Source of the DNA: Candidatus Latescibacterota bacterium
Lineage (GTDB): Bacteria > Latescibacterota > UBA2968 > UBA8231
Assembly: GCA_965204725.1 (NCBI GenBank)
Contig: OZ242005.1
Coordinates: forward strand, 1,312,001 to 1,376,000
Reading direction: 5' to 3'
Length of the DNA stretch: 64,000 nt
Each line of letters starts with the position of its first letter. The stretch's first letter is position 1. Made by a program: the position numbers and the translations under genes. Positions 19,878 through 36,839 of this stretch are shown piece after piece. The notes below the pieces were generated by a model. That model ran no database searches and was not told the DNA's origin. It was given only the letters and a program-made list of their open reading frames with translations.

Positions 19878-21422
19878 CTAGGGCCTATTCATGGCCGGCG
19901 CGGCGGGTGGAGACGCCTCGGCGCGGAATGTTGCGAGGGCTTGGGCGGCCGCGGCCGAGTCGCCGGCCTGCCGGTACGCGAGGACGAGCCCCCGCTGGGC
20001 CGCTGGCAAATCGGGATCGTGGGCTAGCGCCTGCTCGTATCGCTGGGCCGCTATACGGGCATCGCCTTGTTGCAACTCGAGGTTCCCCAGGGCGATGAGG
20101 ACGTCGGCCGAATGCTCGGAAAACTTTAGAGCCTGTTCGTACGCCTCGCGGCTCAGGTCTATGTAGCCGCCGGTGGCGTAGGCCGTGCCTAAGTTGTACC
20201 ACGCCAAGCCATAGTCTGGCTTGAGGTTTAGGGCTTGGCGGTACGCGGCGATTGCCTCGCCGGAACGACCCAAGCGGATGTGGGCATTGCCGAGATTTTG
20301 CCAAGCCCGGGCGTTGTCTGGCTGGAGGGACAAGCCGTCGCGCAGGTGTCTTACGGTGCCCGCGTCGTGCCCGAGGCGGGCGTAGAGGCGAGCGAGGTCG
20401 AAGTGGGTGCTGGGATTGCGCCCCGGCTGAGCCAGTGCCCGCAGACGCTCGATCTCGGCCACGTGCGGCTCGATGCGCCGATGGGCCGCACGCTGCGCTT
20501 GGGCGTCTCGGCGGCGTCCCAGATGGCGGTACGCGGAAGCCAACTGCAACCGGATGTCGGGATGCACCGGGTCGAGCGCGAGCGCCCGCTCAAGCGCGGT
20601 GGTTGCCTCGGCGTACTGCTTGAGCTTGGACCGGGACACGCCGAGGCCGATGTGTGCCTCGACCGCAGCGGGGTCGAGTTGGACTGCGGTCGCAAACGCC
20701 TGCCGGGCTTCGCGGACCCGTCCTACTTGCAGGAGTGCGCGGCCGACCGCGACCTCGTAGCGGACGCTGTCCGGTGCCAAGGCGACAGCGCGTTGGAGGA
20801 GCGGCAACCCTTCGGCACAGCGTCCGAGCCGCTCGCACTGGAGAGCACCCAACGCGAAGGTCGCCTCGTGCGACGCGGGCGCCAATTCTACCGCCCGCTC
20901 CAGCGCAGTCTGCGCGGCCGCTACATCCCCGCGAGCTACCTGCACCGCGCCCATCAGCTTGTGCAGCGTAGGGCGGGCCGGGTCCAGCGCGCTCGCTTCG
21001 GCGAGCGCGTCTTGGGCGTTTGCGAGTTGCCCGAGCGCGAGCCACGCCACTGCTAGCCGCTCCAACGTCGTGGCATCGCGTTGCGCCGCGACGGCTCGCT
21101 GCGCTAGGGCGAGCGCGGTCTCGTGGTCGCGGATCCGGGCCAGCACCTCGCTAAGCCCCATCAGCGCCCCCACGTGCAGACTATCCGAGCGGAGAATCGC
21201 TTGGAACTGATCCATCGACCGATCGGTTTGCCCCAAGCTGAGCAACACGCGGGCCAGCGCCAGCCGAGTCTCGGTATCGGCGGGACGCTCGCGCAATCGT
21301 TTTTCATAGGTTAGCTGCAACCGCCCCAGCTCGTCGGCCGTGGGCGGGCGTTGGCTCTCGCACCCCCCGAGAGCTAGGATCAGGATGAGACCGTGCGCAG
21401 CGGCTCTCACAGGGGCGTCCAT
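19878..21422 (-). CDS. TPR-repeat lipoprotein
   Basis: Lipobox LGGC; repeated 34-aa helical units such as AWQNLGNAHIRLGRSGEAIAAYRQAL. Confidence 0.88.
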   Translation of the reverse strand: MDAPVRAAAHGLILILALGGCESQRPPTADELGRLQLTYEKRLRERPADTETRLALARVLLSLGQTDRSMDQFQAILRSDSLHVGALMGLSEVLARIRDHETALALAQRAVAAQRDATTLERLAVAWLALGQLANAQDALAEASALDPARPTLHKLMGAVQVARGDVAAAQTALERAVELAPASHEATFALGALQCERLGRCAEGLPLLQRAVALAPDSVRYEVAVGRALLQVGRVREARQAFATAVQLDPAAVEAHIGLGVSRSKLKQYAEATTALERALALDPVHPDIRLQLASAYRHLGRRRDAQAQRAAHRRIEPHVAEIERLRALAQPGRNPSTHFDLARLYARLGHDAGTVRHLRDGLSLQPDNARAWQNLGNAHIRLGRSGEAIAAYRQALNLKPDYGLAWYNLGTAYATGGYIDLSREAYEQALKFSEHSADVLIALGNLELQQGDARIAAQRYEQALAHDPDLPAAQRGLVLAYRQAGDSAAAAQALATFRAEASPPAAPAMNRP

Positions 21423-23068
21423 GGCTCGCCTTCTACGATGCGGACAAAGCGGCCGGCCGGCACGGTGCCTACGGCCTGCGATCCACCCGATGGCCAGCGA
21501 ATCAGGATGCTATCTACCGCCGTCCTGCGCCCGAGCCCGAAGTGTAGCCGCAGGTCGTTGTGGGACAGGTAGCTGCTGCCGCCCCGCACCTCGGCCATCT
21601 GCCGCAGATCGTCGGAGAAAACAGTGACCCGCGCCCCGATCCCGCTGCGATTGCTCCGCGTACCTTCGACCTCAACCGAGATCCAGTTGGCTCGGTTGCC
21701 GCCGTCGTTTCTGAGCAGGTGCGGACGTTGGTTGTTATTCGACACGAACAGATCGACGTCGCCGTCGTTGTCGTAGTCGGCCGCTGCGGAGCCTCGCCCC
21801 ACACCCGCTGAGAACGCCGTCAGACCGCTCGCGACCGTCGCATCGGTGAAGGTGCCGTCGCGATTGTTGAGGAAGAGCTGGTCGTGCTGGGCATAGCGCG
21901 GGCCGGCGCTGTCGAGAATCTCAATGTTGGGCTCGACGTGGCCGTTGGCGAGAAACAGATCGGGGTATCCGTCGTTGTCGATGTCGATAAAATCGGTCCC
22001 AAAGGTGAGGGTCTGATAGGTCGGCCCGCCCAGTCCGCTCGGCGCGGTGCGGTCTTCAAATCGGCCTCCCCCGGCATTGTGCAGCAGCCGGCAGGGCTCC
22101 CACTGAAAATTGCACACCCCGAGGTCGAGGCGGCCGTCGCGATCGTAATCGGCCCAATCGGTGCCCATTCCCGCCTCTGGGCTCCCGTCGGGGCTGGTCG
22201 CGACGCCGGCCGAGACTCCGATTTCGGCAAATCGGGAGCGGTCGTTGCGGAACAGGAAATTCGGCTCGTGGTCATTGGCGACGTAGAGATCGAAGTCGCC
22301 GTCGTCGTCGTAGTCGGCAAATCCCACGCCGAGTTGGCGGCCCTCTTCGGTCCAGAGACCCATTGAGCCGGTGATGTCCGTGAAACGGAGGTCGCCGTCG
22401 TTGCGGAACAGCGCCCCGGAATCGCCGGGATAGGCCCTAGGGCCGCAGTAAATCTGAATCGGCCCGCGACTGCATTCCGGGTGCTCGTCCCTGCCAATCC
22501 GCACGTCGTTGGCGACATACAGATCCAAATCGCTGTCGAGATCGATGTCGGCAAAGGCCGCGCTCGTCGAGACTCGTAGATCGCCGGTCCCCGACAGTTC
22601 GGTCGCGTCTGCAAAGCGGCCGTTACCCAAGTTGCGATAGAGCCGATTGGCACCCCAGTTGGTGACGTAGAGATCGGCGTGGCCATCGTTGTCGAGGTCC
22701 CCAACGCCGACCCCCATGCCAAAGCTGGTGTCGGCGACCCCTGCTTGGGCTGCTCTATCGACAAAGGTCCCGTCGGTCTGATTTATAAACAGAGCATTGG
22801 CCGGCCGATCCGCGGTGCGTGCGCCGTGGATCGGAGCGCTGTTGACGACGTAGAGATCGGGAAAGCCGTCGCCGTTGAAGTCGGCAAATGCGGCCCCCGA
22901 ACCATGGGTTTCGGGATAGTAGTACGACCCGGCCGCGCCATTGAAGTGGCGGAATTCGACCCCTGCTTGGGCTGCGACCTCGCTGAATCGAGGGAGGGGC
23001 CGCGCCGGTTCCTCATCGTCGCTGCAACCCGACAAAACGAGGGCTGCCACCCAAGCAACGCGCAGCAT
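21407..23068 (-). CDS. CRTAC1-family lipoprotein (FG-GAP/VCBS propeller + ASPIC/UnbV)
   Basis: Lipobox LSGC; repeated D(F/Y)DNDGxxDL(Y/F)V; C-terminal GGSSYLS...LHFGLG...IRWPSG; start could be 23131. Confidence 0.92.
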   Translation of the reverse strand: MLRVAWVAALVLSGCSDDEEPARPLPRFSEVAAQAGVEFRHFNGAAGSYYYPETHGSGAAFADFNGDGFPDLYVVNSAPIHGARTADRPANALFINQTDGTFVDRAAQAGVADTSFGMGVGVGDLDNDGHADLYVTNWGANRLYRNLGNGRFADATELSGTGDLRVSTSAAFADIDLDSDLDLYVANDVRIGRDEHPECSRGPIQIYCGPRAYPGDSGALFRNDGDLRFTDITGSMGLWTEEGRQLGVGFADYDDDGDFDLYVANDHEPNFLFRNDRSRFAEIGVSAGVATSPDGSPEAGMGTDWADYDRDGRLDLGVCNFQWEPCRLLHNAGGGRFEDRTAPSGLGGPTYQTLTFGTDFIDIDNDGYPDLFLANGHVEPNIEILDSAGPRYAQHDQLFLNNRDGTFTDATVASGLTAFSAGVGRGSAAADYDNDGDVDLFVSNNNQRPHLLRNDGGNRANWISVEVEGTRSNRSGIGARVTVFSDDLRQMAEVRGGSSYLSHNDLRLHFGLGRRTAVDSILIRWPSGGSQAVGTVPAGRFVRIVEGEPWTPL

Positions 23069-23186
23069 CCGACCGAGCCATGGACGATTTGGGGAGGGGC
23101 TATTGGAGGGCTGCTGTACCTTATTCATCATAATCGCGCTACAAGGTACTCACCTTGCAAAGCCCTATCAAGCGCGGGCCAAAGAC

Positions 23187-23287: not shown

Positions 23288-24190
23288 ATGCGGAAGAAAG
23301 CAATACTCAGCACCCTAGCCCTCGGCAGTGTGCTGCTGATGGGCCTTGCGGCCCCAGCCGCAGCGTACGAAAACTGCAACGGCGTTGGCTATTTTGCCCT
23401 GCAGGTGCCCAACCCAGAATCCATGAACCCCGATGGCGATGACAGCGACTGGGGTTGGTTCGACCCCGACTTCATCATCGGTCGCGACCAACTGTGCGAC
23501 GTGATCGGCGCAGGTGAGTTTCCAGCGCGCAGCGACCTCGACATCGCTCACCACGTGGGCTGGACCCCCGAGCCGGACAATCGGCTCTACGTATTTACGC
23601 GCGTCGTCGATGACACGCTCAACGCCGACGTCACCGAGCCGAACGACGGCTGGCACGACGACGACCTAGAGCTGATTCTCGATCCCGATCACGGAGTGTG
23701 GAACGAGGCACCGGACGCCCTCCGCACCGGGCACCAGCAGTGGACCTTTCACTACGCTCGCCCCGGTGGGTATCCCCTCGTATCCTTCCTGCGCTGGAAC
23801 CAGCCGACCGAGATGCAATGGGGCCCCGAGTCCGGGGCTGTTGAGGGGGCGGTCGTGGTCTCTCCAGCGGGCGCCGGGCACTTGTCCACGGACGTGACGG
23901 TGAATTACGAGGTTCGCATGGAGGCCTACGACCCGTACCAGCCAGATGGGCGCGACGCCAGCGTCCGCTGGATCTTTGAAGCAGGCCAGACGATTGGTAT
24001 GTCCCTGAGCCTCAATGAGGCGGACAGTGGCGGGCGAACCCACCAAATCACGACGCACATCCAAAACGGCGGTGCTCATAGTTCGGAATTCTCTTCCGAG
24101 TTCACCTTGCTGAGCACCGATGAGTACACTGCTACTGCTACTTCCGTCGATGGGAGTAGTTGGGGCGCAGTGAAGGCGTTGATGAGGTAA
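23288..24190 (+). CDS. Secreted CBM9/DOMON-like protein with C-terminal TSVDGSSWGAVK tail
   Basis: Signal peptide; PDGDDSDW, GW...NRLYVFTRVVDD, DDDLELILDPDH, GQTIGMSLSLNEAD; RBS gaggag. Confidence 0.7.
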   Translation: MRKKAILSTLALGSVLLMGLAAPAAAYENCNGVGYFALQVPNPESMNPDGDDSDWGWFDPDFIIGRDQLCDVIGAGEFPARSDLDIAHHVGWTPEPDNRLYVFTRVVDDTLNADVTEPNDGWHDDDLELILDPDHGVWNEAPDALRTGHQQWTFHYARPGGYPLVSFLRWNQPTEMQWGPESGAVEGAVVVSPAGAGHLSTDVTVNYEVRMEAYDPYQPDGRDASVRWIFEAGQTIGMSLSLNEADSGGRTHQITTHIQNGGAHSSEFSSEFTLLSTDEYTATATSVDGSSWGAVKALMR

Positions 24191-24217: not shown

Positions 24218-24251
24218 AAGGAGGGAGGGCTGTCCTCCCTCCTTAACTTTT
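24218..24251 (+). terminator. Intra-operon stem-loop / terminator
   Basis: aaggagggagg-gctgt-cctccctcctt followed by aactttt. Confidence 0.7.
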
Positions 24252-24285: not shown

Positions 24286-25008
24286 TTGCGAGTGCTTTGT
24301 ACCTGCCTATTGATCTTGGTCGCGTCCGGCTGTGGGCGCTACTTCCCGGGGCCTCTCCAGCCCCGACCTCGGGCCGAGCAGGGCGAACACATGGTGGTCC
24401 ACGATGACGGATCCGTCGCCTATGTCTTTGAGCGGCTCGACATCGCACTCCGACCGATGACGGACGCGGAGCTCAACCGTAGTTTTGCCACGAAGTCGGA
24501 CGCCGGAGCGCAGTCCACCAACCCCTTCACCTTCGGTGATTGGACCCCCCCCGGAGAGTCGTTTACACCCCAGCGATTTACCGTATTCCTGCTTCGGGTT
24601 AAAAACTATGCGTATCCGAAGGTCAAGATCGATCCGGCGCGGATCGAGTTGCAATCCTCCAGTGCGCGTTTGTACAAGCCCCTGACCTTTCTCGAAATCA
24701 GCGAGTACTACCGAGCGTATGCGTTGGCTTGGGCCGGAAACTACTATGCGCGCATGCGCGAGCGCGAGGATCTGCTGCGTCTCCATCTATATGCCGACAA
24801 GATGATCTTCAGTGGCCAAGAGTACGAAGGCTTTATCGTATTTCCGCCCATGCCCCCGGACGTGACCGAGTTGTCCATTCGAGTCAGCGACGTCGCGGTT
24901 CGTTTCGACTACGCTGACGTGCCGGTGGAGACCCTCGATCTGACCTACGGATTCCAACGCGACGTCTTTAGGGGCTACCAGCCACCCGCCGCCGTTTCGG
25001 CCCGCTGA
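24286..25008 (+). CDS. Uncharacterised lipoprotein (Ig-like beta fold predicted)
   Basis: Lipobox ASGC; FTVFLLRVKNYAYPKV...GQEYEGFIVFP; TTG start. Confidence 0.75.
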   Translation: MRVLCTCLLILVASGCGRYFPGPLQPRPRAEQGEHMVVHDDGSVAYVFERLDIALRPMTDAELNRSFATKSDAGAQSTNPFTFGDWTPPGESFTPQRFTVFLLRVKNYAYPKVKIDPARIELQSSSARLYKPLTFLEISEYYRAYALAWAGNYYARMREREDLLRLHLYADKMIFSGQEYEGFIVFPPMPPDVTELSIRVSDVAVRFDYADVPVETLDLTYGFQRDVFRGYQPPAAVSAR

Positions 25009-25009: not shown

Positions 25010-26878
25010 GTGCCCCGCACAGCCAAACGCGCACTGGTTCTGACGTTCCTCCTGAGCATTGATGCGGGCGGCCAGATCGAGACCGTGCGCATTGGGCAGG
25101 GTGGCGACCCTTGGCAGAGCATGGAGCTAGTGGCTGCGGGGGCGCAGGTCACGGCCGACTCGCTGCTACCGGCCGGCTTCACGGCCGATGAAAACATTGT
25201 TGCCGCCGTGCGCTGGACGGATGTCGGAACAGGCCCGGACGAGTTCATCCCCGAGGGCGGAGGCCGGGTGTGGGCGCGCGTTGCCGACGGTCAGCCCAAT
25301 GGCGTTCTCGTTGATGGCAATCCCAACACATCCACTGGGGAGCGATTTCAGATTCCCGGCCAGTCTCAGGACGGTCGGATCTTCGTCTTCGATTTGGGAG
25401 CCTCGTTTCCGGTCGAACGAATAGCCTTCTACCCCAACCCAGCCGATAGCACCGCCTTCCTGCGAGCCTACGAAGTTAAGGCGAGCGACGGGCGCTCTTT
25501 TGGCACGGGCGAGCGGCCGATCTACGAGACCCTAGCCCGGGTCGAGATTTCCAACAAGGTTCGGACGGAGGCCGAGTTTCCACGACAACTCGTCCGCTAT
25601 ATCCGCTTGGAAACGCTCGAACCGAATCCCTTTGACATCGCCGAGATCGAGGTGTTTGGCCGGGGGTTTGTCCCCCGTGCTCAGTACGTCTCCGACTTCA
25701 TTCGCTTCGATGGCGGCGGGCGTAACTTTGGTCGCCTGACGGTCCACGCGACCCGCGTGTCCAACGAGCCTGCCGTAGCTTCGGCCGACCCAGTGCAGGC
25801 GGTGCTCCAAGTGCGAGCGGGCAACGACACTTCGCCGGAGTCCTACTTTCAGATCGATCTCGAAACCGGCAGTGAGACCGAGATCTCGGAGGAGGCGTAC
25901 CAAAACCTCATCGACCGCGAGCGCACGGCGCGATACGATGCCGCAAACTGGAGTGCGTGGTCCAATCCGGTGGTGATCGATTCGACCGGCTCCTACGAGA
26001 TCAGTCTCGATTTTCTGCCGATGCCGCGGCCCTTCTTCCAGTTCCGATTTTTCTTTGAGGGCACTGCGACCGACGTGATTCGGATCGATGCTTTGGAGTT
26101 CACCCACTCGGCCCCCCTCGCTCAAGGGACGCGAGCCGAGGTCGCCCTCGTCGGCGATCCCTTTCCGCAGACCGGCGTGGCCACCGTCGCGACTGGGCAG
26201 CCCGCGACCTTTGAGTACGCCTTGGCGGCGGAGTTGTCGGGCGACGAGGGGTTCGATGGTTTGCGGATCGCAACGCTGGGCACGGCTCAGTTGGAGTCGG
26301 TGTCAATCGGCGACGACCGCACACAAGTGGTCGTCGATAGCGTCGCGTACGACGACCGCGGCCTGTCGTTCTTCTTCCCGAGCCGCCCAATCACGGCCGC
26401 GAGCAACGCTACGCTCTTTGTGCGGTTTACAGCAACGCCCCTGCGATACACGACCCTGTTCCAAGGTTGGCTCCTCAGTTCAGCGGGGGCGGTTCCGCAG
26501 CGGGTTGCTCCCGGCGATGCCACCAACCTGCTCAGCACGAATTCCGTCGTGGTCTTTGGTTCGCTTGGCGATCCCCTGAGCCGATTCAATCTGGGGGCTG
26601 GGGTCGTGACGCCGAATGGGGATGGCCGGAACGACGACTTGGTGCTGCAGTACGACCTCGTATTCCTCATCGAACCAGCGCGAGTGGGCATTACCGTTCA
26701 CGATCTATCGGGTCGGCTCGTTCACACCTTTCTGCAAGCGGAGCAGGCGGCCGGCAGCTACCTAGCCAGATGGAGCGAGGCCCACAAGCTGCGGCCGGGG
26801 CACTACATCGTCCGCCTGCACGTCGAAACGCAGGCCGAAGCGTTTGAACGCCTCCGACTCGTGGCGGTGTCCTACTAA
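25010..26878 (+). CDS. Secreted protein: discoidin-like domain + conserved core + FlgD-Ig/TPNGD C-terminal domain (paralog 1)
   Basis: FDLGASFPVERIAFYP, VRYIRL, AEIEVFGRG, NWSAWS, VTPNGDGRND, VHDLSGRLV, ends VAVSY. Confidence 0.8.
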   Translation: MPRTAKRALVLTFLLSIDAGGQIETVRIGQGGDPWQSMELVAAGAQVTADSLLPAGFTADENIVAAVRWTDVGTGPDEFIPEGGGRVWARVADGQPNGVLVDGNPNTSTGERFQIPGQSQDGRIFVFDLGASFPVERIAFYPNPADSTAFLRAYEVKASDGRSFGTGERPIYETLARVEISNKVRTEAEFPRQLVRYIRLETLEPNPFDIAEIEVFGRGFVPRAQYVSDFIRFDGGGRNFGRLTVHATRVSNEPAVASADPVQAVLQVRAGNDTSPESYFQIDLETGSETEISEEAYQNLIDRERTARYDAANWSAWSNPVVIDSTGSYEISLDFLPMPRPFFQFRFFFEGTATDVIRIDALEFTHSAPLAQGTRAEVALVGDPFPQTGVATVATGQPATFEYALAAELSGDEGFDGLRIATLGTAQLESVSIGDDRTQVVVDSVAYDDRGLSFFFPSRPITAASNATLFVRFTATPLRYTTLFQGWLLSSAGAVPQRVAPGDATNLLSTNSVVVFGSLGDPLSRFNLGAGVVTPNGDGRNDDLVLQYDLVFLIEPARVGITVHDLSGRLVHTFLQAEQAAGSYLARWSEAHKLRPGHYIVRLHVETQAEAFERLRLVAVSY

Positions 26879-26903
26879 GAGCAGGCAAGGGGAGGGGAAA
26901 ACT

Positions 26904-28977: not shown

Positions 28978-31323
28978 ATGACTATGAAAACAACAAGCCG
29001 CATCGCCTTGGCCGCGTGGCTGCTGTCTGGGTACGCGGGGGCCGATGAGTTGCGCTTTGAGCGTCTCAGCGACTGGCGGGAGTGGACGAGCCCGACGGGG
29101 GCCATTCAGTTGCGGCAAGACGGGAAAGTCGAGCTGGGGTGGTACGGAACGGACACCGACCCGATGGATGACATGACCCAGTTCTCGCACCCCACCCGAA
29201 AAAGCGGCGAAGTCTTTGGGGGTCTGACGGCCCAGTCGAACGACCGCGAGGCCCGGTTTCTCGCCGATAACGACCGCGACACGTGGTGGCAGCCCGACGC
29301 CGGGGCCGATCCCAACAATGCTTGGATACACATTGACCTAGGCCGCGTCGTCTTGCTCAAGGAGATTCGCTTGGTCTTTCCAGACACGCTCGGCCTGCGT
29401 CCCTTCCGCGATTTCTCGGTTTTTGTCAGCGAAGGTTCGACCGTGTCTTCGTCGGCCGATGTCTGGCGATTTCAGCGCGTCTTTACGACCACCGAGCCCA
29501 ACGAGTTGGGCGAGATCGTCATTCCCTTGTCGATTGAAGATTTCGGCACCATTGCGACCGGCGAGAATCTGGTCCGGGGCAAGTTGCTAGACTTCATGCC
29601 CGTCCACTACGTCCGCTTCCTGCCCCACGAGGCCGGAGAAGGCGCGGCGCTGGCCGAGATCGAGTTGACTGCGGTCGGCGATAATATCGCGTTGACGACC
29701 TTTGAACGAGGGGGGACTATTCGCTCGGGGCTGAAAAAAGTGGAAGAAATCCGCGATGGAACCGTGGACAATGCTTGGCCGGTAATTTCAAATACCCTCA
29801 ATCGCTTCTGGCAGGACGGCGGGATGTGGTTTGAGTGGGACTTGGGGGCCCTCTTCCACGTCAGCCGGATCGTGTTCTACCAGTGGCCGCCCGATCAGCT
29901 CGGGCGCACGACATTCGGAATCGGCGGAACCAACACCGGCTACAACTTGGAGATGACAGACGGGACGCCGATCGCCCGGGACGACCCATTCCGCAGCCCA
30001 TTCGACTACACGCGCGTTTCGCTGGTTGACAACAGCCGAGCACCGGGACGCTACGTCTTTGACCATCAGTTAGAGGACCGAGTCGGCCGCTATCTGTTCT
30101 GGAACCACCGGGACATCGAGGACCGAAGAGTTGGATATATCATGCTGGAGGTATTCATCTATTCGGCGGGCTACCCGGCCCAAGCGGCCTTGACCTCCGA
30201 CTTCATCGATCTCGGGGGGGCCAAGAGCATCACGGGGGTCTCGTGGGACGCCGACACCCCGCCGGGGACCCGAATCACCGTGCAGACGCGCACGGGCAAT
30301 GAACTCGACGCGGATCAGTTCTTCTTCAAGAAAAACGGAGAGCAGATCACCGAGGCGCAGTACAACAAGCTACCCAAAGTGGTCCGGGGCGAAATCGTCG
30401 AAGTGCCCAAGGAGGGGGCGGACTGGAGCGGTTGGAGTGAGCCGCACCTTGCGTCGGGCCAGCCCTTTCGGTCGCCCACCCCTAGACAACTGTTGCGAAT
30501 GCGGGTGAGTTTAGAGACCGACGATCCCAACATCACGCCGGTCCTCAACTCGGTGACGCTGCACTTTGACGAAGCCTTGGTGCAAAAAGGCGTTGAGGCC
30601 GCGATTTATCCACGGGAGGCGACCGCTGGCGAGTGGCAGGACTTTCGCTACGTGCTGCAACCGACCTTTACGGCCAGAGACCGAGGCTTCGATCGCGTGC
30701 TGCTGCCCGTGCCGGGGGCCGTGCGGAACGTGTCGTTGCGCGTCAATGGCGCGGCGGTCGAGGGCGCGGTCGAATCGACCGTAGATACGCTCGTCATCGC
30801 CATGCCCCGGCGCGTACTGCGGGACTCAGTGGAGGTAATGTTCACGGCGCGCCCCCTGAACAACCCCACTCGCTTCCTCGCCGCCGTGGCGAACTCGGCG
30901 CAACCGGATAACCTGCAAGAGGTGCGGCCGCCCGATGTCGATGACGATGGCGATGGCCAGTTCGATCGCACGGACCGGGAGGCCCTCTTCGTCTTTTTAC
31001 CCAACACAGCTACCGGCAGTACTATCCGCAACCTCGTGGTATCGAGCCGCGTCATCACGCCCAACGGCGACGCGGTCAACGACGACTTGCGCGTTACCTT
31101 CGATCTATTTCGCACCAAAGTTGCCGCTGAGCTGCGGCTCTACAACGTAGCGGGGCGTTTGCTCCGGGTCGTCTCCGGCCAAGCGGGGGAGACGCAGCAA
31201 CTCGTGTGGGATGGCATGGTCAACGATCAGCCGGCGGAACCGGGAATCTACATCTGCCGCGTAGCGGTGCCGGCCGACGCCGGGCTGGCTACCGAAGTCC
31301 TGCTGGTGAGTGTAGCCTACTAG
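28978..31323 (+). CDS. Secreted protein, same architecture with two discoidin-like domains (paralog 3)
   Basis: Signal peptide; WIHIDLGR and WFEWDLGA, DWSGWS, ITPNGDAVND, WDG...PGIY, ends VSVAY. Confidence 0.8.
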   Translation: MTMKTTSRIALAAWLLSGYAGADELRFERLSDWREWTSPTGAIQLRQDGKVELGWYGTDTDPMDDMTQFSHPTRKSGEVFGGLTAQSNDREARFLADNDRDTWWQPDAGADPNNAWIHIDLGRVVLLKEIRLVFPDTLGLRPFRDFSVFVSEGSTVSSSADVWRFQRVFTTTEPNELGEIVIPLSIEDFGTIATGENLVRGKLLDFMPVHYVRFLPHEAGEGAALAEIELTAVGDNIALTTFERGGTIRSGLKKVEEIRDGTVDNAWPVISNTLNRFWQDGGMWFEWDLGALFHVSRIVFYQWPPDQLGRTTFGIGGTNTGYNLEMTDGTPIARDDPFRSPFDYTRVSLVDNSRAPGRYVFDHQLEDRVGRYLFWNHRDIEDRRVGYIMLEVFIYSAGYPAQAALTSDFIDLGGAKSITGVSWDADTPPGTRITVQTRTGNELDADQFFFKKNGEQITEAQYNKLPKVVRGEIVEVPKEGADWSGWSEPHLASGQPFRSPTPRQLLRMRVSLETDDPNITPVLNSVTLHFDEALVQKGVEAAIYPREATAGEWQDFRYVLQPTFTARDRGFDRVLLPVPGAVRNVSLRVNGAAVEGAVESTVDTLVIAMPRRVLRDSVEVMFTARPLNNPTRFLAAVANSAQPDNLQEVRPPDVDDDGDGQFDRTDREALFVFLPNTATGSTIRNLVVSSRVITPNGDAVNDDLRVTFDLFRTKVAAELRLYNVAGRLLRVVSGQAGETQQLVWDGMVNDQPAEPGIYICRVAVPADAGLATEVLLVSVAY

Positions 31324-31377: not shown

Positions 31378-34017
31378 ATGAAGCGCAACCGGGTCGGCTC
31401 CATCCTAGCCGTCCTGCTCCTACAGGTGACGCCAAGCGGAGCAGTCGAAGTCGGTCTGTTCAATCCCTACATCACGGAAGGGGCCCGAATCAGCCCTGAG
31501 ACTTTGATTCCAACGTTGCGGAAGTGGTATCTGCCCCAAGCACTCTACTCACTATACGGGTGGCAGGGGAGCGCGTACACCAACTACGCGCGGGACCAGT
31601 ACCGGCGCTACGTGCGAACCGAGCTCGAAGGCGACCGCTACTACGACCTCTACGGCAATTACTTCACGAAGGGCTGGAACATCTACAACTTCACGAATGA
31701 GTACCCGCGGGATTTCGGGAGCGGAATCTGGAAAGACCCCAATTTTAGCCAGTGGTTCAATCGCCTCATCGTGGTCTCTGGGGCCAAGGGGCAGTTCCAC
31801 ACCTCCCTGACCATTGGCGAGGGCATTCGCACCACGATGACGCCGCTCACCTTTTCCAAGCCGCTTTTCGACGGTTTGCAGTGGGACTTTCAGACCGATA
31901 AGTACGGAGTAAGCGTCTTGGCGGCGCGGGCCGATTCGCCCGGGCGCGTGGCCGTTGCGGTCGATCAAGGACCGGCGCGGCAAACGACCTTCACCCAGTT
32001 GCTCGGCCTGAACGGAAGCGTGGTCGTCGGCGATTTCGCCACGCTGGGTGGACGGTATATGACGACCTTTCACCAAAACTCGGCCCTTTCCCTCGACGAA
32101 AACTCTCTGCGCGGCGTCCTCGGCGGCCGCCTGAATGCGGGAAACGTCCAGCGGCTGATCGTGCGGCTATCCGACGACTCGCCGGAGGATGGCGTGGGCG
32201 GTGCCTTGCTGCTCCGCGAGCAGATCTTCATCGACGGCGTCGAGCATCCCGAGATTGACCCGATCATCGAAGGGGGCGTCGCGCGCGAGGGCCTGCTAGA
32301 GGCCAGCGGTTCCAACACGGTCACCCTGACTTATAACATTGAGACCGATTTCCGGCCGGGTCCCGATGAGGAGATCACCGATTTCCGGGAGATCGAGCGC
32401 ATTGAGGTGGGGTTGGTCGTGGCCAACGACTACCTCGTAGAGGTCGCGTCGAACCTGCAAACCAACGCGACGCTCGAACCCGCCTTTCTGCCCGTCGCCC
32501 AAGCGCAGGGCAACGTCACCGATGCTTCCAACCAGCGCTTCATCCGCTTTCAGTACGGGATCCCTTCGAGCAACGAGCTGCGGGGGGTGAGTCTGGCGAT
32601 CAGCGATGTGGGGGGCTTCAACCTCCGCTCCGAGTACGTGAGCAATCGACGCAACCGGCGGTTCCCCAACCAGACCATCCGCAGCAATCAGGCCCTCGCG
32701 CACGACGAGTCCGAGGCGTACTACGCCACGGCGTCGCAGATCACGTACCCCTTCTTTGGGTACGGGGAAGTTTTCAGCGTCGAGCCGGGGTACTCGACGT
32801 CGATGTTCATCCCCGACTCGCAGGGCTTCGTCGATTACGAGAACGAGGAGAACTATCTCTACGAGCTCGTCGATGACAACGACGACCAAGATCGCTTCCC
32901 GGACTGGGTTCGCCGGAGCGCGAATCTGAGTGCCCTGTTTCCAAACCAGAATCAGTTCCCCGATCGGGAGGTGTTTCCAGGGCTCGACGAAAACCAAGAC
33001 TTCATCTCCGACTTCAATCAGAACCAGAATAACCAGCCCGATTACAGCGAGCCGTTCTTCCGCTACCACGTCGATCCGCCCGAATTCCTGTTTGGCACGG
33101 ACATGAACAACAATACCGTCATCGACCGGTTTGAAAACGACACGGAACCCGATTACCCGTACAAGCGGGACAGCAAGGGATACAACTTCTATGTCGGGGT
33201 CGAACTGATGCCGAACAGCCGCCTCATGGTAGGGCGCTTGCGGATGGACCAGCACTCCAGCAATCGCCGGGCGGCCTCTACTTACGGTCTGCTGACGCTG
33301 AAGAAGGAATATCCGCAACGCAGTCTGTCGATCCAGCTCATGGAGTTTGCCCGCGCCGTCCAAGACGACATCCCCGACCATCTCATCCAGTGGGAGCAGC
33401 CGCCGTTCTCCACCGGGACGCTGCGGGACTTTAGCGATCCGTTGATCGCGCAGGATACCTTCATTAACACCCTCTACCTACAGGTAGATTGGGAACCGTT
33501 CGTCACGACGCAGACCAAGCTCAAGTACGACGCGTACAATCAGCGGGGGGATGCGGCGCAGGGAACGCGGGATGAGCGGTTCTTGGGCCTAATCAACAAG
33601 GCCGATCGCCAATTTTGGGCCATGCCGACGGTGATGGTGTGGCCGCAGTGGAAGCAGCGGTTTTCTGCTCGCACGCCGACCAACCCACGCGAGCGCAGCA
33701 CGCGCGACTTGGCGGAACTGTTCTTCTTGCTCGTCAACTATCGCATCTCCCCTAGGCTAACCCTCGGTTTTGGCACCGAGTACGAGCTTTTTAATAACCT
33801 CAAGAGCCGTCCAGAGGGGGGTGCGGTTGACTACCAAGACGACTTCAGCCGCTTGACGTTGGCATCGCAGTTTTCCAATCAGGCGGCTTATCTGGGCTAC
33901 GAGCTCACCGCGAATATCGGCATCCGGTGGACTCAACGCAGCGTGCGCGACCAAGCTGCCGACACGAACACCATGATCTTCGTCGATGTGTTTGCGGGGC
34001 TGGGAACCGGCCAGTGA
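31378..34017 (+). CDS. Large exported protein, putative outer-membrane beta-barrel with Asp/Asn-rich Ca-binding loops
   Basis: Signal peptide; amphipathic aromatic-rich strands in the last ~280 aa ending IFVDVFAGL; DDNDDQD, GLDENQDFISD, DMNNNTVID. Confidence 0.6.
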   Translation: MKRNRVGSILAVLLLQVTPSGAVEVGLFNPYITEGARISPETLIPTLRKWYLPQALYSLYGWQGSAYTNYARDQYRRYVRTELEGDRYYDLYGNYFTKGWNIYNFTNEYPRDFGSGIWKDPNFSQWFNRLIVVSGAKGQFHTSLTIGEGIRTTMTPLTFSKPLFDGLQWDFQTDKYGVSVLAARADSPGRVAVAVDQGPARQTTFTQLLGLNGSVVVGDFATLGGRYMTTFHQNSALSLDENSLRGVLGGRLNAGNVQRLIVRLSDDSPEDGVGGALLLREQIFIDGVEHPEIDPIIEGGVAREGLLEASGSNTVTLTYNIETDFRPGPDEEITDFREIERIEVGLVVANDYLVEVASNLQTNATLEPAFLPVAQAQGNVTDASNQRFIRFQYGIPSSNELRGVSLAISDVGGFNLRSEYVSNRRNRRFPNQTIRSNQALAHDESEAYYATASQITYPFFGYGEVFSVEPGYSTSMFIPDSQGFVDYENEENYLYELVDDNDDQDRFPDWVRRSANLSALFPNQNQFPDREVFPGLDENQDFISDFNQNQNNQPDYSEPFFRYHVDPPEFLFGTDMNNNTVIDRFENDTEPDYPYKRDSKGYNFYVGVELMPNSRLMVGRLRMDQHSSNRRAASTYGLLTLKKEYPQRSLSIQLMEFARAVQDDIPDHLIQWEQPPFSTGTLRDFSDPLIAQDTFINTLYLQVDWEPFVTTQTKLKYDAYNQRGDAAQGTRDERFLGLINKADRQFWAMPTVMVWPQWKQRFSARTPTNPRERSTRDLAELFFLLVNYRISPRLTLGFGTEYELFNNLKSRPEGGAVDYQDDFSRLTLASQFSNQAAYLGYELTANIGIRWTQRSVRDQAADTNTMIFVDVFAGLGTGQ

Positions 34018-35612
34018 TGCGGATTTTGCCGCCGGCCGTTCTCTCGCTGACAGCGGGACTGCTGGCCTGTCAACCACCCGAACCACCCGAGCCAAAGCCC
34101 CGCGTCGTCGCCGTCGTTGACCGCGATACGATCGACGTCGAGTCCTACCGCGCGATGGCGGCCAAGCTGCTGGCTTCTTCCCATCGCGGCCAAGATCCCG
34201 CCCGCCTCGACACGAGGCGTCGGTTGCTCGATGCGATGATCGACCGACAGCTTCTGGTGATGGAGGGGCGACGCCGGAAGCTAAGCGCGTCGCCGCGAAT
34301 CGCCGCGGCCCTTGAAACGCTCCAGAACAAACTCCTCTGGCGCGCCCTGTTCAACGCGGTTGCCATTGACGCTGGGCGCGATACGACCGGCATCTATGCC
34401 TTTGCCCGCGAAAAAGGATTCACCGAAGAGGTGCTGCTCCAGCACGTGATGCTGGCCAATGAGGCCGATGCGTGGAGCGTCCTCAAAGCACTCGATGCGG
34501 GAGAGCCGCTTGATGTGCTCGCCGTCGAGCGTTCGGTCCACCACGAGACCGGGGGCTTGGGGGGCTACTTTAGCTACATGTCCGTATCCCAAGTGCTCCC
34601 TGAGGTCCGCGAGCAAATTCTGTCTCTGGAGCCGGGTCAAACCTACCCGGAACCGCTGACCTCCCGCTACGGGGTTCACGTGTTTCGCCTCGTCGATCGC
34701 CGCCCGGCCGACCTTGCGAGCCGGTGGGATGTGGTGCTCGAGGAGTTTCGCGCCCGCGAGAGAACGCGCGTCTTCGAGGCTTTTGCCGACAGCTTGGCGG
34801 ATGCGCGTGGGCTAGTCTGCGCGAGCGAGCGGCCGGCGTCGGACCCGCTTTGTACTTGGACGACCGGCCGGTTGTTGTCATCCGATGTCGATTGGGCCGC
34901 TGCCGAGGCCGATCTTCAGGGTTGGTTGCGCGTCAAGGCCCGGGATCGGCTGGTCCTTGAAGAGGCCCAGCGTCGCGGTATGGACCGTCAACCCGGAATC
35001 CGCGAGCCGATCGCGGCGCGTAGGGAAGAGATGATGATCGACAGCCTCCGTCGTCAGGTAGTCGGGCGCATTGAGGTGCCGGATGGGGAAAAGCGTTTGT
35101 ACTACGAGGAACACCCCGATCTGTATGGCCCACGTCCGACGGTTCGCGTGGATGAAGTGCTCGTTGCGGATCGTACGCTGGCGCAACGGCTCCGCGGCCA
35201 AGCAGAGGCGGGCGTACCCATCGACTCCTTGGCGCGGGCACACAGCATTCGCGAGGTGACGAAAAAGAGCGGTGGGTCGATGTGGCTCGTCACGAGGGAC
35301 AACCCGCTGTTGGGGCCTCTCGCGCCCCTCGCGCTCGACGCGGAAGTGGGGACGCTCTTAGGCCCCCTCGAAGTACCGGGCGGGTATTCGGTTCTGCGGA
35401 TCGCCGAAAAGGGTGAGACCCCGGCCCGCCCCTATGAGGCGGTGGAACGGAACATTGAAGTGATCCTCCGGCTGCGTGCCGAGCATCAGCGGATGGACTC
35501 GTTGCTCGCCCAACTCCGCGTGGACTTCGCCGCCGCGATCGCGATCCATGAAGACGCGCTGGCCTCTGTACTGGCCGATTGGGGGGATCGCACAGACGAT
35601 GCCCGGAATTGA
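34017..35612 (+). CDS. PpiC/parvulin-type peptidyl-prolyl isomerase lipoprotein (PrsA/SurA-like, two rotamase domains)
   Basis: Lipobox LLAC; LQHVMLA...LAVERS...GGLGG...PLTSRYGVHVFRL; second domain LARAHS...GPLEVPGGYSVLR; TGATG coupling. Confidence 0.82.
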   Translation: MRILPPAVLSLTAGLLACQPPEPPEPKPRVVAVVDRDTIDVESYRAMAAKLLASSHRGQDPARLDTRRRLLDAMIDRQLLVMEGRRRKLSASPRIAAALETLQNKLLWRALFNAVAIDAGRDTTGIYAFAREKGFTEEVLLQHVMLANEADAWSVLKALDAGEPLDVLAVERSVHHETGGLGGYFSYMSVSQVLPEVREQILSLEPGQTYPEPLTSRYGVHVFRLVDRRPADLASRWDVVLEEFRARERTRVFEAFADSLADARGLVCASERPASDPLCTWTTGRLLSSDVDWAAAEADLQGWLRVKARDRLVLEEAQRRGMDRQPGIREPIAARREEMMIDSLRRQVVGRIEVPDGEKRLYYEEHPDLYGPRPTVRVDEVLVADRTLAQRLRGQAEAGVPIDSLARAHSIREVTKKSGGSMWLVTRDNPLLGPLAPLALDAEVGTLLGPLEVPGGYSVLRIAEKGETPARPYEAVERNIEVILRLRAEHQRMDSLLAQLRVDFAAAIAIHEDALASVLADWGDRTDDARN

Positions 35613-35636
35613 AGAGTACTGGGAGCTGCGCGGGTC

Positions 35637-36839
35637 ATGCCGGCCGTTTTCGTCTTCTTCCTACTGAGTGCCTGCGAGGGGGCTGCGCCCGAGCAAGAAG
35701 TCGCCCGAGCCATCCTCGACAGCGCGCTAGCGCACTCGGCGCGCGGTGAATCCGTCGCCGCGATCCGGCTGCTGCGCCGGGCGGCGCAGCTCGATCCACA
35801 GGATCCGGTCATCCCCTACAATCTCGGCAACAACTTGGCGCGGCAGGGCCGTCTCGACCAAGCTGTTGCGTCGTACCAACGAGCGCTATTCCTCGAACCT
35901 AAGTACGCGGCTGCCCATTACAACCTAGCGTCCGTGCGCTCTGCGGCCGGGCGGCACGAAGAAGCGGAAGCGGGCATGGCGCGCGCGATTGAGGCCGACA
36001 GTGGCTATCAGCCCGCCCACAAGGCGTTGGCGCAGTTGCGGGAACGGCGCGGCGACTACGATGGTGCCATCGAATCGCTGGAGATTGCGGTGGGGATCCG
36101 TCCCGACGATGTGGAGGCGCGCAATCAGCTCGGCTACCTGCTGGGGAAGCAGGGACGCCCGACCGCGGCCAAAGCGGTTTTGCGGAGGACGCTGCAAATC
36201 GACTCGACCCACGCGGACACTTGGGCACACTTAGGGGCGCTCCAACTCGCCGCCAAGGACTTTGCGAGCGCTCGCCAGTACTTAGAAAGGGCCGTCCAAC
36301 TCAACGCATACCACACGAAGGCGCACTTCGACTTGGCCAACTGTCTGATGCGGCTGGGCGAGAAGCAGAGTGGACGAGAGATGCTGCGGCGGTTTGAGAT
36401 GCTGCGATCGCTGGACGAGGACATCGCCAAGTACCGAGAGGCGATCCGCCACGACCCCACCGATCCGGCCCTCTACCAAGCACTCGCTCGCCTGTATGCA
36501 AGACGGGGTGAGGCAGACAAAGCGATTCAACGCTATCGACAGGCCATCGCCCGCGATGCCGAATTGGCCGCTGCCCACAACAACTTGGGCAACCTCCTGC
36601 TGCAACAGAAGCGACCCGAAGAGGCGGCCCGGGCCTATCGAGCCGCGTTGCTCGCCGACTCCACCTACGCCCTCGCCCACAATGGAATCGGTACCGTCAG
36701 ACTCCTTGCGGGGAATAGGGTCGGGGCCATGGCGGCCTTTGCCCGCGCCGTCGAATTGGATTCCGCAAACCGCACATTCGCCGACAACCTCAGAGCTGTC
36801 CAGATGCTCCTACGACAAGAAGAGGAATCGCGTGATTGA
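35637..36839 (+). CDS. TPR-repeat lipoprotein
   Basis: Lipobox LSAC; YNLGNNLARQGRLDQAVASYQRAL and similar units. Confidence 0.88.
   Translation: MPAVFVFFLLSACEGAAPEQEVARAILDSALAHSARGESVAAIRLLRRAAQLDPQDPVIPYNLGNNLARQGRLDQAVASYQRALFLEPKYAAAHYNLASVRSAAGRHEEAEAGMARAIEADSGYQPAHKALAQLRERRGDYDGAIESLEIAVGIRPDDVEARNQLGYLLGKQGRPTAAKAVLRRTLQIDSTHADTWAHLGALQLAAKDFASARQYLERAVQLNAYHTKAHFDLANCLMRLGEKQSGREMLRRFEMLRSLDEDIAKYREAIRHDPTDPALYQALARLYARRGEADKAIQRYRQAIARDAELAAAHNNLGNLLLQQKRPEEAARAYRAALLADSTYALAHNGIGTVRLLAGNRVGAMAAFARAVELDSANRTFADNLRAVQMLLRQEEESRD

Follow-up and report, generated by a model that had tools for sequence, protein, structure and literature searches.

We wanted to establish what kind of envelope system is encoded by two divergent operons at positions 19,878 to 36,839 of the window (the whole 64,000-nucleotide stretch of Latescibacterota DNA that was analysed). 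An earlier note had seen here a dedicated envelope module around a large barrel. The role that the note proposed, glycan capture or adhesion, is a candidate function.

Organization of the region

All ten genes named in the earlier note were found, tightly packed, at the positions given in Table 1, and each of their products has a signal peptide or a lipobox. Five lipoboxes had been claimed and five lipobox-like motifs were detected (LGGC, LSGC, ASGC, LLAC and LSAC); the remaining products have ordinary signal peptides. The anatomy described earlier was therefore confirmed. The note had also recognised no SusC/SusD, TonB receptor, secretin or usher, and among the 13 proteins that we scanned against Pfam and NCBIfam there was likewise no match to these families or to Plug. 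The importer and SDR genes left of the region matched SBP_bac_1, BPD_transp_1 and adh_short. The region contains 10 hairpin sites, which is not above the number in shuffles (15.7). The one at 24218..24244 is possibly an attenuator.

Table 1. Features of the region, with positions in the window.
Feature	Positions	Strand	Remarks
ABC importer, sugar-type (solute-binding protein, two permeases), and SDR	15231..19868	-	Context; downstream of the leftward pair
TPR lipoprotein, 514 aa	19878..21422	-	Pfam TPR families; lipobox LGGC at residue 18
CRTAC1-like lipoprotein, 574 aa	21407..23131	-	FG-GAP repeats and UnbV_ASPIC; lipobox LSGC
CBM9-like secreted protein, 300 aa	23288..24190	+	Opens the rightward operon; tail ...SSWGAVKALMR
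Terminator-like hairpin	24218..24244	+	Lies between LIP and the CBM9-like gene; 12-bp stem followed by a T-rich tail
LIP, conserved lipoprotein, 240 aa	24286..25008	+	Belongs to no known family
PAR622	25010..26878	+	Discoidin-type multi-beta-sandwich with T9SS-like C-terminal domain
PAR709	26844..28973	+	Paralog; likely start is Met at 26904
PAR781	28978..31323	+	Paralog; directly upstream of BIG
BIG, 879 aa	31378..34017	+	Outer-membrane beta-barrel, undescribed family
Parvulin-type PPIase lipoprotein	33927..35612	+	Two rotamase domains; lipobox LLAC if translation starts at the likely Met (about 34017)
TPR lipoprotein, 400 aa	35637..36839	+	Closes the rightward operon; TPR families; lipobox LSAC

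The CBM9-like protein scored 25.3 bits with CBM9_1 (cut-off 23.4), and its family profile matched the xylanase CBM9 module of T. maritima (1i82, E 2e-7). The SWGxxK tail that had been noticed on it is present, and 25 of the 30 CBM-like proteins of the genome carry it; however, it is a general tag in this genome and not specific to the module. LIP gave no match in Pfam or NCBIfam and had no relative in the PDB. Its lipobox cysteine (Cys16) was invariant across 26 sequences, and hhalign (99.8%) showed homology between the protein and a DUF4159 lipoprotein of a distant operon, in the N-terminal half of the latter. The parvulin matched Rotamase_2 (62.7 bits) and Rotamase (40.7 bits), and the CRTAC1-like protein matched FG-GAP_3 (149.5 bits) and UnbV_ASPIC (77 bits).

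BIG is predicted to be a large beta-barrel

There was no Pfam or NCBIfam family match for BIG, and its named homologues are all annotated as hypothetical. The barrel suspected earlier was predicted confidently by AF2 (pLDDT 83.9, pTM 0.82), with about 24-26 long strands as counted from DSSP of the model. Two inserts were observed, a beta domain at about residues 259-375 and, at about 475-598, a stretch rich in D and N that probably binds Ca. Foldseek returned outer-membrane barrels only, of a generic kind (best E 3.3e-7; TM no higher than 0.38 among the matches listed, the two best of which had 0.22 and 0.34), as did the VIA search (Z up to 13.8); neither found a close solved relative. The N-terminal stretch is conserved: G93 and G99 do not vary, and N69, Y75 and D90 hardly do. 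In the model pLDDT was below 50 at residues 14-67 and 74-80, and 64-73 at residues 81-100.

PAR proteins and the type 9 secretion system

PAR622 and PAR709 are 29% identical over their full length, and PAR781 and PAR709 27% identical over 450 residues. PAR709 passed the cut-offs for FlgD_ig (31.5 bits) and CHU_C (28.3 bits). PAR622 scored 27.4 bits with F5_F8_type_C, just below the cut-off, and matched CHU_C and Por_Secre_tail weakly; PAR781 scored 30.2 bits with F5_F8_type_C_2 and had weak matches to CHU_C and TIGR04131. The AF2 model of PAR709 (pLDDT 91, pTM 0.85) was all-beta and multi-domain. Its Foldseek matches were to the carbohydrate-binding N-domain of galactose oxidase and to Ig-like arrays, with no enzyme fold among them.

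The C-terminal domain (CTD) of the PARs is common to 80 other, non-cassette proteins of the genome, and does not by itself explain the specificity between PAR and BIG. Its class is ambiguous, the NCBIfam type A and type B models both scoring below cut-off. The earlier note had suggested looking elsewhere for sprA, porV and gldKLMN. SprA (485 bits) and PorU (623 bits) were both found above cut-off, and a PorV-like gene below it (150 bits, cut-off 250), some 250 bases away from where PorU matched. On the other hand, GldL, GldM and GldN were not detected in the genome with models that are built around Bacteroidota and gave no signal in any control, and the GldK model gave generic FGE-like matches only. 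Since the PARs share their CTD with these 80 proteins in a genome encoding SprA and PorU, the module leans on the known T9SS.

The cassette is repeated in the genome

A search for BIG gave 42 matches, and we identified 38 BIG genes at 28 loci; gene calls came from a simple GC3-based ORF picker, so that small errors in the counts are possible. This repetition strengthened the analogy with PULs drawn earlier. Linkage was scored as a position within 12 kb of a BIG gene, where 471 of 4000 genes lie as background. Near BIG were 28/30 CBM-like, 12/13 LIP, 25/29 parvulin and 81/105 PAR-core genes, and only 6/80 of the other CTD proteins. The grouping far exceeds chance, and the proposal of a real, dedicated envelope module around a large barrel is supported. 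Its core is a CBM9-like protein, in some cases LIP, one to three PARs, BIG and the parvulin lipoprotein. Directly upstream of BIG we found a PAR in 25 of 38 cases and another BIG in 6 more.

The partners co-diversified with BIG (Mantel r = 0.67, 25 pairs for PAR; r = 0.62, 26 pairs for CBM; r = 0.57, 25 pairs for the parvulin; r = 0.94, 12 pairs for LIP), and in each test 0 of 2000 permutations reached the observed value. Cassettes are thus duplicated as whole units, but physical contact does not follow from this.

The leftward genes included in the earlier description, the ABC importer among them, are present, but they were linked only loosely to the module. Members of the CRTAC1-like family lay within 12 kb of BIG in 22 of 47 cases, and TPR-family genes in 33 of 77 against a background of 11.8%. 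The leftward TPR and CRTAC1-like genes are therefore regarded as paired accessories in loose association with the module. The 400-aa TPR gene after the PPIase also occurs in orthologous loci L011-L018 and L020. Importers were moderately enriched near BIG (DUF6785 11/32, solute-binding protein 4/8, permease 6/18), and sulfatases were not (2/30). Neither the region itself nor a set of 58 unlabelled neighbour proteins from 20 cassettes contained a recognisable glycoside hydrolase or lyase. None of the 10 PorQ-like matches of the genome, a set that omitted one weak ORF, lay near BIG, so the satellite cassettes yielded no PorV/PorQ/PorP-family gene.

Conservation and a fuller, putatively older operon

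In other genomes we found 80 BIG loci, all from Latescibacterota-type MAGs. A PAR was directly upstream of BIG in 57 of the 69 loci with room upstream, and the 58 loci with full flanks had CBM in 51, LIP in 50 and the parvulin in 44. Lack of conserved gene order had been named as grounds for giving up the proposal; the order was kept in other Latescibacterota MAGs, so this refutation fails. Across the phylum BIG was present in 107 and LIP in 105 of 168 genomes, and their family-level patterns were identical (75/75 in family f1, 0/56 in f2-f4).

More distant homologues of BIG came from MAGs named as KSB1, Zixibacteria, Marinimicrobia and Ignavibacteriales. Their operon is fuller and runs PAR-like protein, PorV/PorQ-family barrel, BIG, giant TPR protein, ExbB/ExbD and DUF4159 proteins. 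PAR-core was upstream in 24 of 25 distant loci, and in 18 of the 25 a PorV/PorQ-like gene separated it from BIG; among 31 loci we observed the giant TPR in 15, ExbB in 12, DUF4159 in 16 and the LIP domain in 16. The source genome has one locus of this type, in which BIG is accompanied by ExbB and two ExbD genes. The satellite cassettes would derive from this older operon, which is also present beyond the phylum. The earlier view that the system had not been described held in so far as we found no description of the cassette in the literature. However, since the distant relatives adjoin a PorV/PorQ-family barrel and ExbB/ExbD, part of it maps onto the described T9SS logic of a cargo with a partner barrel.

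Possible function of the cassette

We tentatively favour, at somewhat less than even chances, a reading of the region as a satellite member of a repeated Latescibacterota cassette family, in which T9SS-exported lectins with a cognate barrel would serve to capture substrates at the cell surface. Sec would carry all products over the inner membrane, as the observed signal peptides and lipoboxes suggest, and the T9SS of the genome would export the PARs over the outer membrane via the CTD, to which that domain and SprA/PorU point. The PARs would be held on or beside their cognate BIG, like type-B cargo with PorP/SprF; adjacency and co-diversification are consistent with this. Judging from fold and family, the discoidin and CBM9-like modules would bind glycan or another surface ligand. 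The parvulin lipoprotein may act as a periplasmic chaperone of the barrel or of the PARs. Once captured, substrate might conceivably pass inward through BIG or another porin and so reach ABC or DUF6785 importers encoded close by. As the cassettes examined hold no glycoside hydrolase or lyase and sulfatases are not enriched, a glycan substrate is unproven. The absence of a PorV/PorQ/PorP-family gene from the satellite cassettes, the undetected GldL, GldM and GldN, and the ambiguous class of a CTD that non-cassette proteins also carry count against the favoured reading.

The PARs could instead be variable surface adhesins or a coat, or gliding or attachment modules, held by BIG in a SprB/SprF- or SlpA-like manner and taking no part in nutrient import; the many copies would then provide surface diversity or differing attachment specificities. 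A lectin/Ig-like array with no enzyme fold and cassettes (those examined) with no CAZymes agree with this, and the PorV/PorQ-family barrel, ExbB/ExbD motor and giant TPR of the older operon recall motor-linked surface machines. The top Foldseek matches of BIG were Deinococcus SlpA entries, and SlpA_C appeared in two of five distant homologues, below its cut-off (32.7 and 23.7 bits, cut-off 35). However, the SlpA sequence in the PDB was not found by the BIG profile, TM-scores against SlpA were low, and no SLH domain was among the family matches of the region. The failure to find GldL, GldM and GldN and the enrichment of importers also speak against this reading, which we consider rather unlikely.

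We are more doubtful that BIG is an energised uptake channel, a plug-less analogue of SusC with PAR, CBM9-like protein and LIP as its surface lids or binders, in which case all 38 barrels would be powered from the single locus with ExbB/ExbD and the giant TPR. BIG genes do outnumber the 20 Plug-domain receptors of the genome, the distant operons also have ExbB/ExbD, importers are enriched nearby, and the conserved, poorly modelled N-terminal stretch could be a coupling segment. But the cassettes yielded neither a Plug or TonB-box family nor a TonB-like gene, and ExbB/ExbD may be a Tol-like system that is a neighbour by chance. It seems very improbable that the region encodes an export machine, either chaperone-usher-like, with the parvulin bringing PARs to BIG for a fibre, or one in which BIG and the TPRs export a polymer (as PgaA, BcsC or AlgE). 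The barrel is of usher size, FimD and PapC were among the Foldseek/VIA matches (E 1e-4, Z 11.2), each cassette has a periplasmic chaperone-like gene and the operon includes TPR lipoproteins. Against this, no usher or PapD-like family was matched, TM-scores with ushers were 0.17-0.26, the region has no synthase or glycosyltransferase, and the PARs, whose T9SS-type CTD points to the SprA route, are large multi-domain globular arrays unlike pilins.

Comparison with known systems

The pairing of a large barrel lacking a plug domain with a small conserved lipoprotein of shared phyletic pattern resembles LptD-LptE, a lipoprotein-plugged barrel. Unlike there, BIG had no LptD family match and Foldseek TM of 0.14-0.20, LIP had no detectable PDB relative, and there are only 13 LIP copies for 38 barrels. 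Deinococcus SlpA (7zgx, 8ae1; SlpA_C, PF21620) was what BIG matched best in Foldseek (E 3.3e-7 to 1.2e-5) and gave the weak Pfam matches, below cut-off, in its distant homologues, but TM was 0.19-0.23, and sequence-profile match and SLH domain were lacking.

The SusC/SusD PULs of Bacteroidota are many paralogous cassettes with an outer-membrane barrel and surface binding proteins or lipoproteins. The cassettes described here are likewise many per genome, are arranged around a barrel with surface binders and lipoproteins, and in some cases adjoin importers and sugar-catabolic genes. They differ in that those examined have no Plug/TonB-dependent receptor domain, SusD or CAZymes, and in that their binding proteins bear a T9SS CTD rather than being lipoproteins.

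T9SS cargo with an adjacent cognate barrel is a known precedent, and two papers (PMC9143113, PMC12618676) describe type-B CTD cargo with a PorP/SprF-like barrel for SprB-SprF of Flavobacterium johnsoniae and PG1035-PorP of Porphyromonas gingivalis. As there, the gene for an outer-membrane barrel is immediately preceded by one for a secreted protein with a T9SS-type CTD, many pairs occur per genome, and cargo and barrel co-diversify; the older operon form includes a PorV/PorQ/PorP-family barrel. However, BIG exceeds PorP/SprF in size about threefold, with no PorP_SprF, PorV or PorQ match, and since the older operon has BIG in addition to the PorV/PorQ-like barrel, it is not a simple replacement. 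The cassettes further add a CBM9-like protein, LIP and the parvulin, and their host lies outside Bacteroidota proper. In summary, the logic of the cassette is best read as both PUL-like and SprB/SprF-like, built from different parts and with an inferred function.

Gene content of the region

We mapped the open reading frames of the region 19878..36839 and scanned their products against the Pfam and NCBIfam families. All genes listed in the earlier note, which had read the region as an envelope system from the sequence, were present, and as it had said there were no matches to SusC/SusD, Plug, secretin or usher families in the region. Intergenic gaps in the rightward operon ranged from 1 to approximately 95 bases, and five lipobox-like motifs were found in the region. 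The features are listed in the table together with others noted in the window, including parts of a second cassette (1-8381).

Features of the region and of its surroundings in the window
Feature	Position	Direction	Remark
PAR-family gene	running off left end of window, to 746		second cassette
Sulfatase	1355-2809		second-cassette area
Second CBM-like gene	4049-4993		second cassette; no Pfam match, member by our own profile
SBP	5077-6729		second-cassette area
Sulfatase	6921-8381		second-cassette area
DUF6785 + DUF6784 protein	11359-13473	-	approximately 700 aa
Solute-binding protein, two ABC permeases, SDR	beyond the leftward TPR/CRTAC1-like pair	leftward	
TPR protein	19878-21422	leftward	
FG-GAP/UnbV_ASPIC (CRTAC1-like) protein	21407-23131	leftward	
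CBM9-like protein	23288-24190	rightward	C-terminus SSWGAVKALMR
Terminator-like hairpin	24218-24244	+	12-bp stem
LIP, lipoprotein	24286-25008	rightward	240 aa
PAR622, PAR709, PAR781	within 25010-31323	rightward	discoidin/CTD paralogs, 29% and 27% identity
BIG, barrel protein	31378-34017	rightward	879 aa
Double-parvulin lipoprotein	33927-35612	rightward	
TPR lipoprotein	35637-36839	rightward	
SBP_bac_1/8 + BPD_transp_1 ORF	39775-42111	+	778 aa
Caspase-domain (Peptidase_C14) protein	within 43032-46949	-	691 aa, near ECF sigma factor gene

The hairpin between the CBM9-like gene and LIP could be a way of raising the level of the first gene product; the number of terminator-like sites in the region was not higher than in shuffles. 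The 778-aa ORF is possibly an atypical fusion, unless the ORF picker joined two separate genes. The caspase-domain protein has no relation to the cassette.

BIG is a predicted outer-membrane barrel

BIG, the 879-aa protein, matched no family in Pfam or NCBIfam. Its named homologues were all annotated as 'hypothetical protein' and came from Latescibacterota MAGs, some carrying a Gemmatimonadetes label. We modelled BIG with AlphaFold2 from an alignment of 56 sequences (pLDDT 83.9, pTM 0.82). The model contained approximately 24-26 long strands, by our own count from DSSP, a beta domain inserted near residues 259-375 and a second, D/N-rich insert near residues 475-598. Most of the invariant residues lay in the second insert, which is probably calcium-binding. 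The N-terminus was modelled poorly (residues 14-67 and 74-80 below pLDDT 50); residues 69-99 include invariant and nearly invariant positions in the 56-sequence alignment.

The structural matches obtained with Foldseek and VIA were outer-membrane barrels only (SlpA, MtrB, LptD, FimD, porins, BamA/TamA). Foldseek TM values did not exceed 0.38 among the matches listed, the two best matches having 0.22 and 0.34, and the wide VIA search returned generic barrels only (Z ≤13.8, rmsd approximately 9-13 Å). The BIG profile had no match below E 0.1 among PDB sequences. Together, the model, the barrel-only matches and the lack of a PDB or family match identify BIG as a predicted large outer-membrane barrel with no close solved or curated relative.

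We also considered that BIG could be part of a split DUF5916 protein, an architecture that fuses CBM9 and a barrel. This was rejected, as hhalign gave a probability of 0.15% against a DUF5916 protein encoded in this genome. The complex prediction of BIG (110-879) with LIP (17-240) scored 0.00, which gives no verdict and speaks neither for nor against binding.

PAR, CBM9-like and LIP proteins

The model of PAR709 (pLDDT 91, pTM 0.85) was an all-beta array of several domains. In the structure search its N-terminal domain resembled the carbohydrate-binding domain of galactose oxidase and the remainder resembled Ig-like arrays; no enzyme fold was found among its structural matches. The C-terminal domain (CTD) of PAR709, of the T9SS-like kind, carried a TPNGDGxND-type motif, and both FlgD_ig and CHU_C were over cut-off. 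The CHU_C scores were 28.3 bits for PAR709, 22.3 for PAR781 and 17.0 for PAR622 (cut-off 27). The PAR CTDs reached approximately 21 bits with TIGR04131 (type-B CTD, cut-off 35) and approximately 21 bits with TIGR04183 (type-A, cut-off 23).

The window CBM9-like protein matched PF06452 partially (25.3 bits, cut-off 23.4), and the profile of its family matched the CBM9 modules 1i82 (E 2e-7) and 7nwn (E 1.4e-4) over approximately 75 residues. By sequence match, this 300-aa protein can be classed as a putative CBM9 family member. LIP has an invariant lipobox cysteine and its profile had no match below E 0.3 among PDB sequences. It is homologous to the first half of one of the DUF4159 lipoproteins in the older operon described below (hhalign 99.8%, E 1.2e-29).

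A C-terminal tag of the approximate form TSVE-xx-SWG-x-IK-xx-F, placed after a low-complexity linker, was present on 25 of the 30 CBM-like proteins of the genome that the window comes from. It also ended 19 other proteins of that genome, none of them encoded next to BIG genes. Therefore the tail was rejected as a BIG-specific tether of the CBM9-like protein. Pfam, run on 17 of the tagged non-CBM proteins, found domains in 10 (among them three Cache, two PD40, and one each of FGE-sulfatase, SBP_bac_3, LTXXQ and lamin-tail) and nothing in 7. The tail of the window protein (24150-24190) was unmatched by any NCBIfam model. The tag has the look of a signal for sorting or docking that is so far undescribed.

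Many CBM-like paralogs of this genome have a histidine directly after the predicted signal-peptide cleavage site (for example ...ANAH, ...AFAH, ...ALAH), which recalls N-terminal His metal sites. The copy in the window is without it.

The cassette is repeated in the genome

BIG had 42 matches in the 5.43-Mb genome. Genes were counted in our own ORF calls with profiles made from the window proteins, and linkage within 12 kb was set against a background of 471/4000 genes.

Gene counts in the genome and linkage to BIG
Family	Genes	Within 12 kb of BIG
BIG	38, at 28 loci	
CBM-like	30	28/30
LIP	13	12/13
Parvulin	29	25/29
PAR-core	105, 102 with CTD	81/105
CTD-only other proteins	80	6/80

The immediate upstream neighbour of BIG was a PAR gene in 25 of 38 cases and a tandem BIG gene in 6 more. 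We rejected the CTD as determinant of the BIG partner, as only 6 of the 80 other CTD proteins lie near BIG. Identities among BIG paralogs correlated with those of their neighbours (Mantel r = 0.67 for PAR, 0.62 for CBM, 0.57 for parvulin and 0.94 for LIP; 0/2000 permutations reached the observed value in each case). These correlations indicate that the cassettes duplicate and diverge as units; they are no proof of contact.

Near BIG we observed a modest enrichment of DUF6785 (11/32), SBP (4/8) and permease genes (6/18). Sulfatases were not enriched near BIG in this genome (2/30). The DUF6785/DUF6784 protein of the window is one of 32 genomic copies of its family. It could act at the inner membrane as a partner or importer; our literature search found no paper naming either domain.

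Conservation in other Latescibacterota

A scan of the genome collection gave 80 loci, all from Latescibacterota-type MAGs, and BIG was called in 79. A PAR gene lay immediately upstream of BIG in 57 of the 69 loci having upstream room. Among the 58 loci with full flanks, CBM-like genes were present in 51, LIP in 50, parvulin in 44 and CRTAC1-like genes in 28. The orthologous loci L011-L018 and L020 repeated the window gene order exactly. The earlier note had staked its reading on such conservation across other genomes, and the reading holds in this respect.

In a scan of 168 genomes of the phylum, BIG was detected in 107 genomes and LIP in 105, the pattern across families being identical; kin among these genomes are not independent. 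Candidates scored per genome were capped at 5 for BIG and at 16 for LIP, so the scan reports presence, not copy number. Within the family to which the window belongs all 75 genomes had both genes, as did almost every genome in nine other families; neither gene was found in the 56 genomes of three sister families from its class.

An older, fuller operon

More distant homologues, sharing 26-31% identity with the window BIG, carried names from KSB1, Zixibacteria, Marinimicrobia and Ignavibacteriales MAGs. When their alignment was used to scan metagenomes, 49 loci were obtained. Where at least 3 kb of upstream sequence was available (n = 25), a PAR-core gene lay upstream in 24, with a gene of approximately 300 aa in between in 18. 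Where at least 3 downstream genes were available (n = 31), we found a TPR protein of approximately 1050 aa in 15, ExbB in 12, ExbD in 11, DUF4159 in 16 and the LIP domain in 16. Curated family scans of example loci identified an F5/8C + CHU_C protein, a PorV/PorQ-family barrel (L114, NF033709 86.7 bits, cut-off 90; L118, PF11751 PorP_SprF 33.3, cut-off 22.3), BIG, a giant TPR protein with YbgF/BamD-like repeats and weak PorW/SprE likeness, MotA/ExbB and ExbD, two DUF4159 proteins and DUF5683.

The window's genome has one full locus (C1:86000-115844; L160, L091). Its order is CBM-like, BIG, LIP, a 216-aa gene, PAR and a weak PorV/PorQ-like ORF (42.8 bits), followed by BIG, a 1090-aa TPR protein, ExbB, ExbD, ExbD, LIP and parvulin. 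The two BIG genes are divergent and encode approximately 1030 aa each. Set against this full locus, the window cassette is a satellite that has neither a shuttle-like barrel nor a giant TPR protein nor a motor.

T9SS genes

The earlier note had proposed a search for sprA, porV and gldKLMN. SprA (485 bits) and PorU (623 bits) were over cut-off in the genome. A PorV-like gene approximately 250 bases from the PorU match scored 150 bits, under the cut-off of 250. The GldL, GldM and GldN models had no match in the genome and GldK gave FGE-like partial matches only; these models matched no control genome either. Possibly this phylum has a T9SS motor so divergent that Bacteroidota-based models miss it. 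Judged by the SprA, PorU and PorV-like matches, the genome is predicted to encode T9SS translocon and attachment parts. A T9SS-like CTD was found in 182 proteins, approximately 4.5% of 4000 gene calls.

Proposed role of the module

For this module we observed exported products, a barrel, lectin-like CTD proteins, T9SS translocon and sortase genes, strict linkage and co-diversification. Our leading, though tentative, proposal is that T9SS-exported PAR lectins are displayed at their cognate BIG barrel for substrate capture. The T9SS would carry the PARs out of the periplasm, and they would be retained on or beside the cognate barrel, by analogy with type-B cargo held by PorP/SprF. Ligand would be bound by the discoidin and CBM9-like modules, with the parvulin lipoprotein as a dedicated chaperone. 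Nearby importers might receive the captured material, as the modest DUF6785/SBP/permease enrichment suggests.

A purely adhesive or coat-forming module is somewhat unlikely in our estimate. The SlpA-type S-layer anchoring barrel was found by Foldseek at E 3.3e-7 but with TM 0.22; BIG had no SlpA_C or SLH match, and SlpA_C matched 2 of 5 distant BIG homologues under cut-off. We consider it unlikely, too, that BIG represents a new class of outer-membrane machine. This reading assumes an FCB-wide ancestral assembly of a T9SS-delivered lectin, a PorV/PorQ-type shuttle, BIG, a giant TPR scaffold and a TolQR/ExbBD-type motor. In Latescibacterota, the half made of lectin and barrel would have been copied dozens of times as satellite cassettes, all served by a single motor to which the conserved N-terminal stretch of BIG would link them. 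If true, PUL-like energised capture and uptake of substrate would have been invented a second time, independently and without TonB-dependent receptors.

That BIG is an energised, plug-less uptake channel, all copies having one ExbB/ExbD motor in common, seems quite improbable; the genome's full locus does contain ExbB and ExbD. Least credible is an usher-like or polymer-export machine, to which we give very little weight. The chaperone-usher pathway has an usher and a PapD-like chaperone, whereas the region had no match to either, and FimD/PapC were only generic barrel matches (TM 0.17-0.26). Unlike PgaA/BcsC/AlgK-AlgE polymer export, the region has no synthase or glycosyltransferase, and its TPR matches to PgaA and BcsC were far under cut-off.

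Latescibacterota are widespread and, to our knowledge, have no cultured representative. The 38 BIG copies outnumber the 20 Plug-domain receptors of the same 5.43-Mb genome and come with dedicated lectins, lipoproteins and chaperones, which suggests that the cell surface is organised around an unnamed module. Should substrate capture or import be its role, as we propose, the module would be the equivalent of PULs in this phylum, and in metagenomes it would mark substrate specialisation. If it anchors T9SS cargo, the repertoire of T9SS partner barrels would be widened beyond Bacteroidota and tied to an ExbB/ExbD motor. Under either reading BIG, LIP and the PAR core merit family definitions.

Comparison with known systems

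We found no earlier description of the module in titles and abstracts, with subscription journals and supplements outside the coverage. The available part of a 2015 Latescibacteria genome analysis proposes uptake via non-specific porins only (PMC4454575).

The SusC/SusD PUL is built on a SusC-type Plug + TonB_dep_Rec barrel with a SusD-like lipoprotein encoded beside it. In contrast, BIG and the 12 other region proteins had no Plug or TonB receptor match in Pfam and NCBIfam, and there was no SusD match among these 13 proteins; all Plug matches of the genome lay away from the region. PUL loci contain CAZymes, whereas none was found in the region or among 58 unlabelled proteins encoded in the neighbourhood of 20 cassettes, and the sulfatases and GH-like genes of the window lie outside the cassette. 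The lack of CAZymes in the cassettes, together with the lack of sulfatase enrichment, argues against a glycan-degrading PUL. For LptD/LptE there was no family match in Pfam or NCBIfam, and Foldseek found LptD at E approximately 1e-4 with TM 0.14-0.20.

In the T9SS type-B cargo system, cognate PorP/SprF barrels encoded beside the cargo gene hold the cargo, as described in the available sections of two papers (PMC9143113, PMC12618676). BIG had no PorP_SprF, TIGR03519, PorV or PorQ match. Two weak PorP-like matches of the genome were not in cassettes, and a PorV/PorQ/PorP-family gene was found only in the older operon, including the genome's own copy. The module therefore fails to fit either the type-B cargo/PorP-SprF system, as BIG lacks PorP/SprF, PorV and PorQ matches, or the PUL, as it lacks Plug, SusD and CAZymes. 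It resembles the PUL in its multiplicity and the T9SS in having cargo with a partner barrel.
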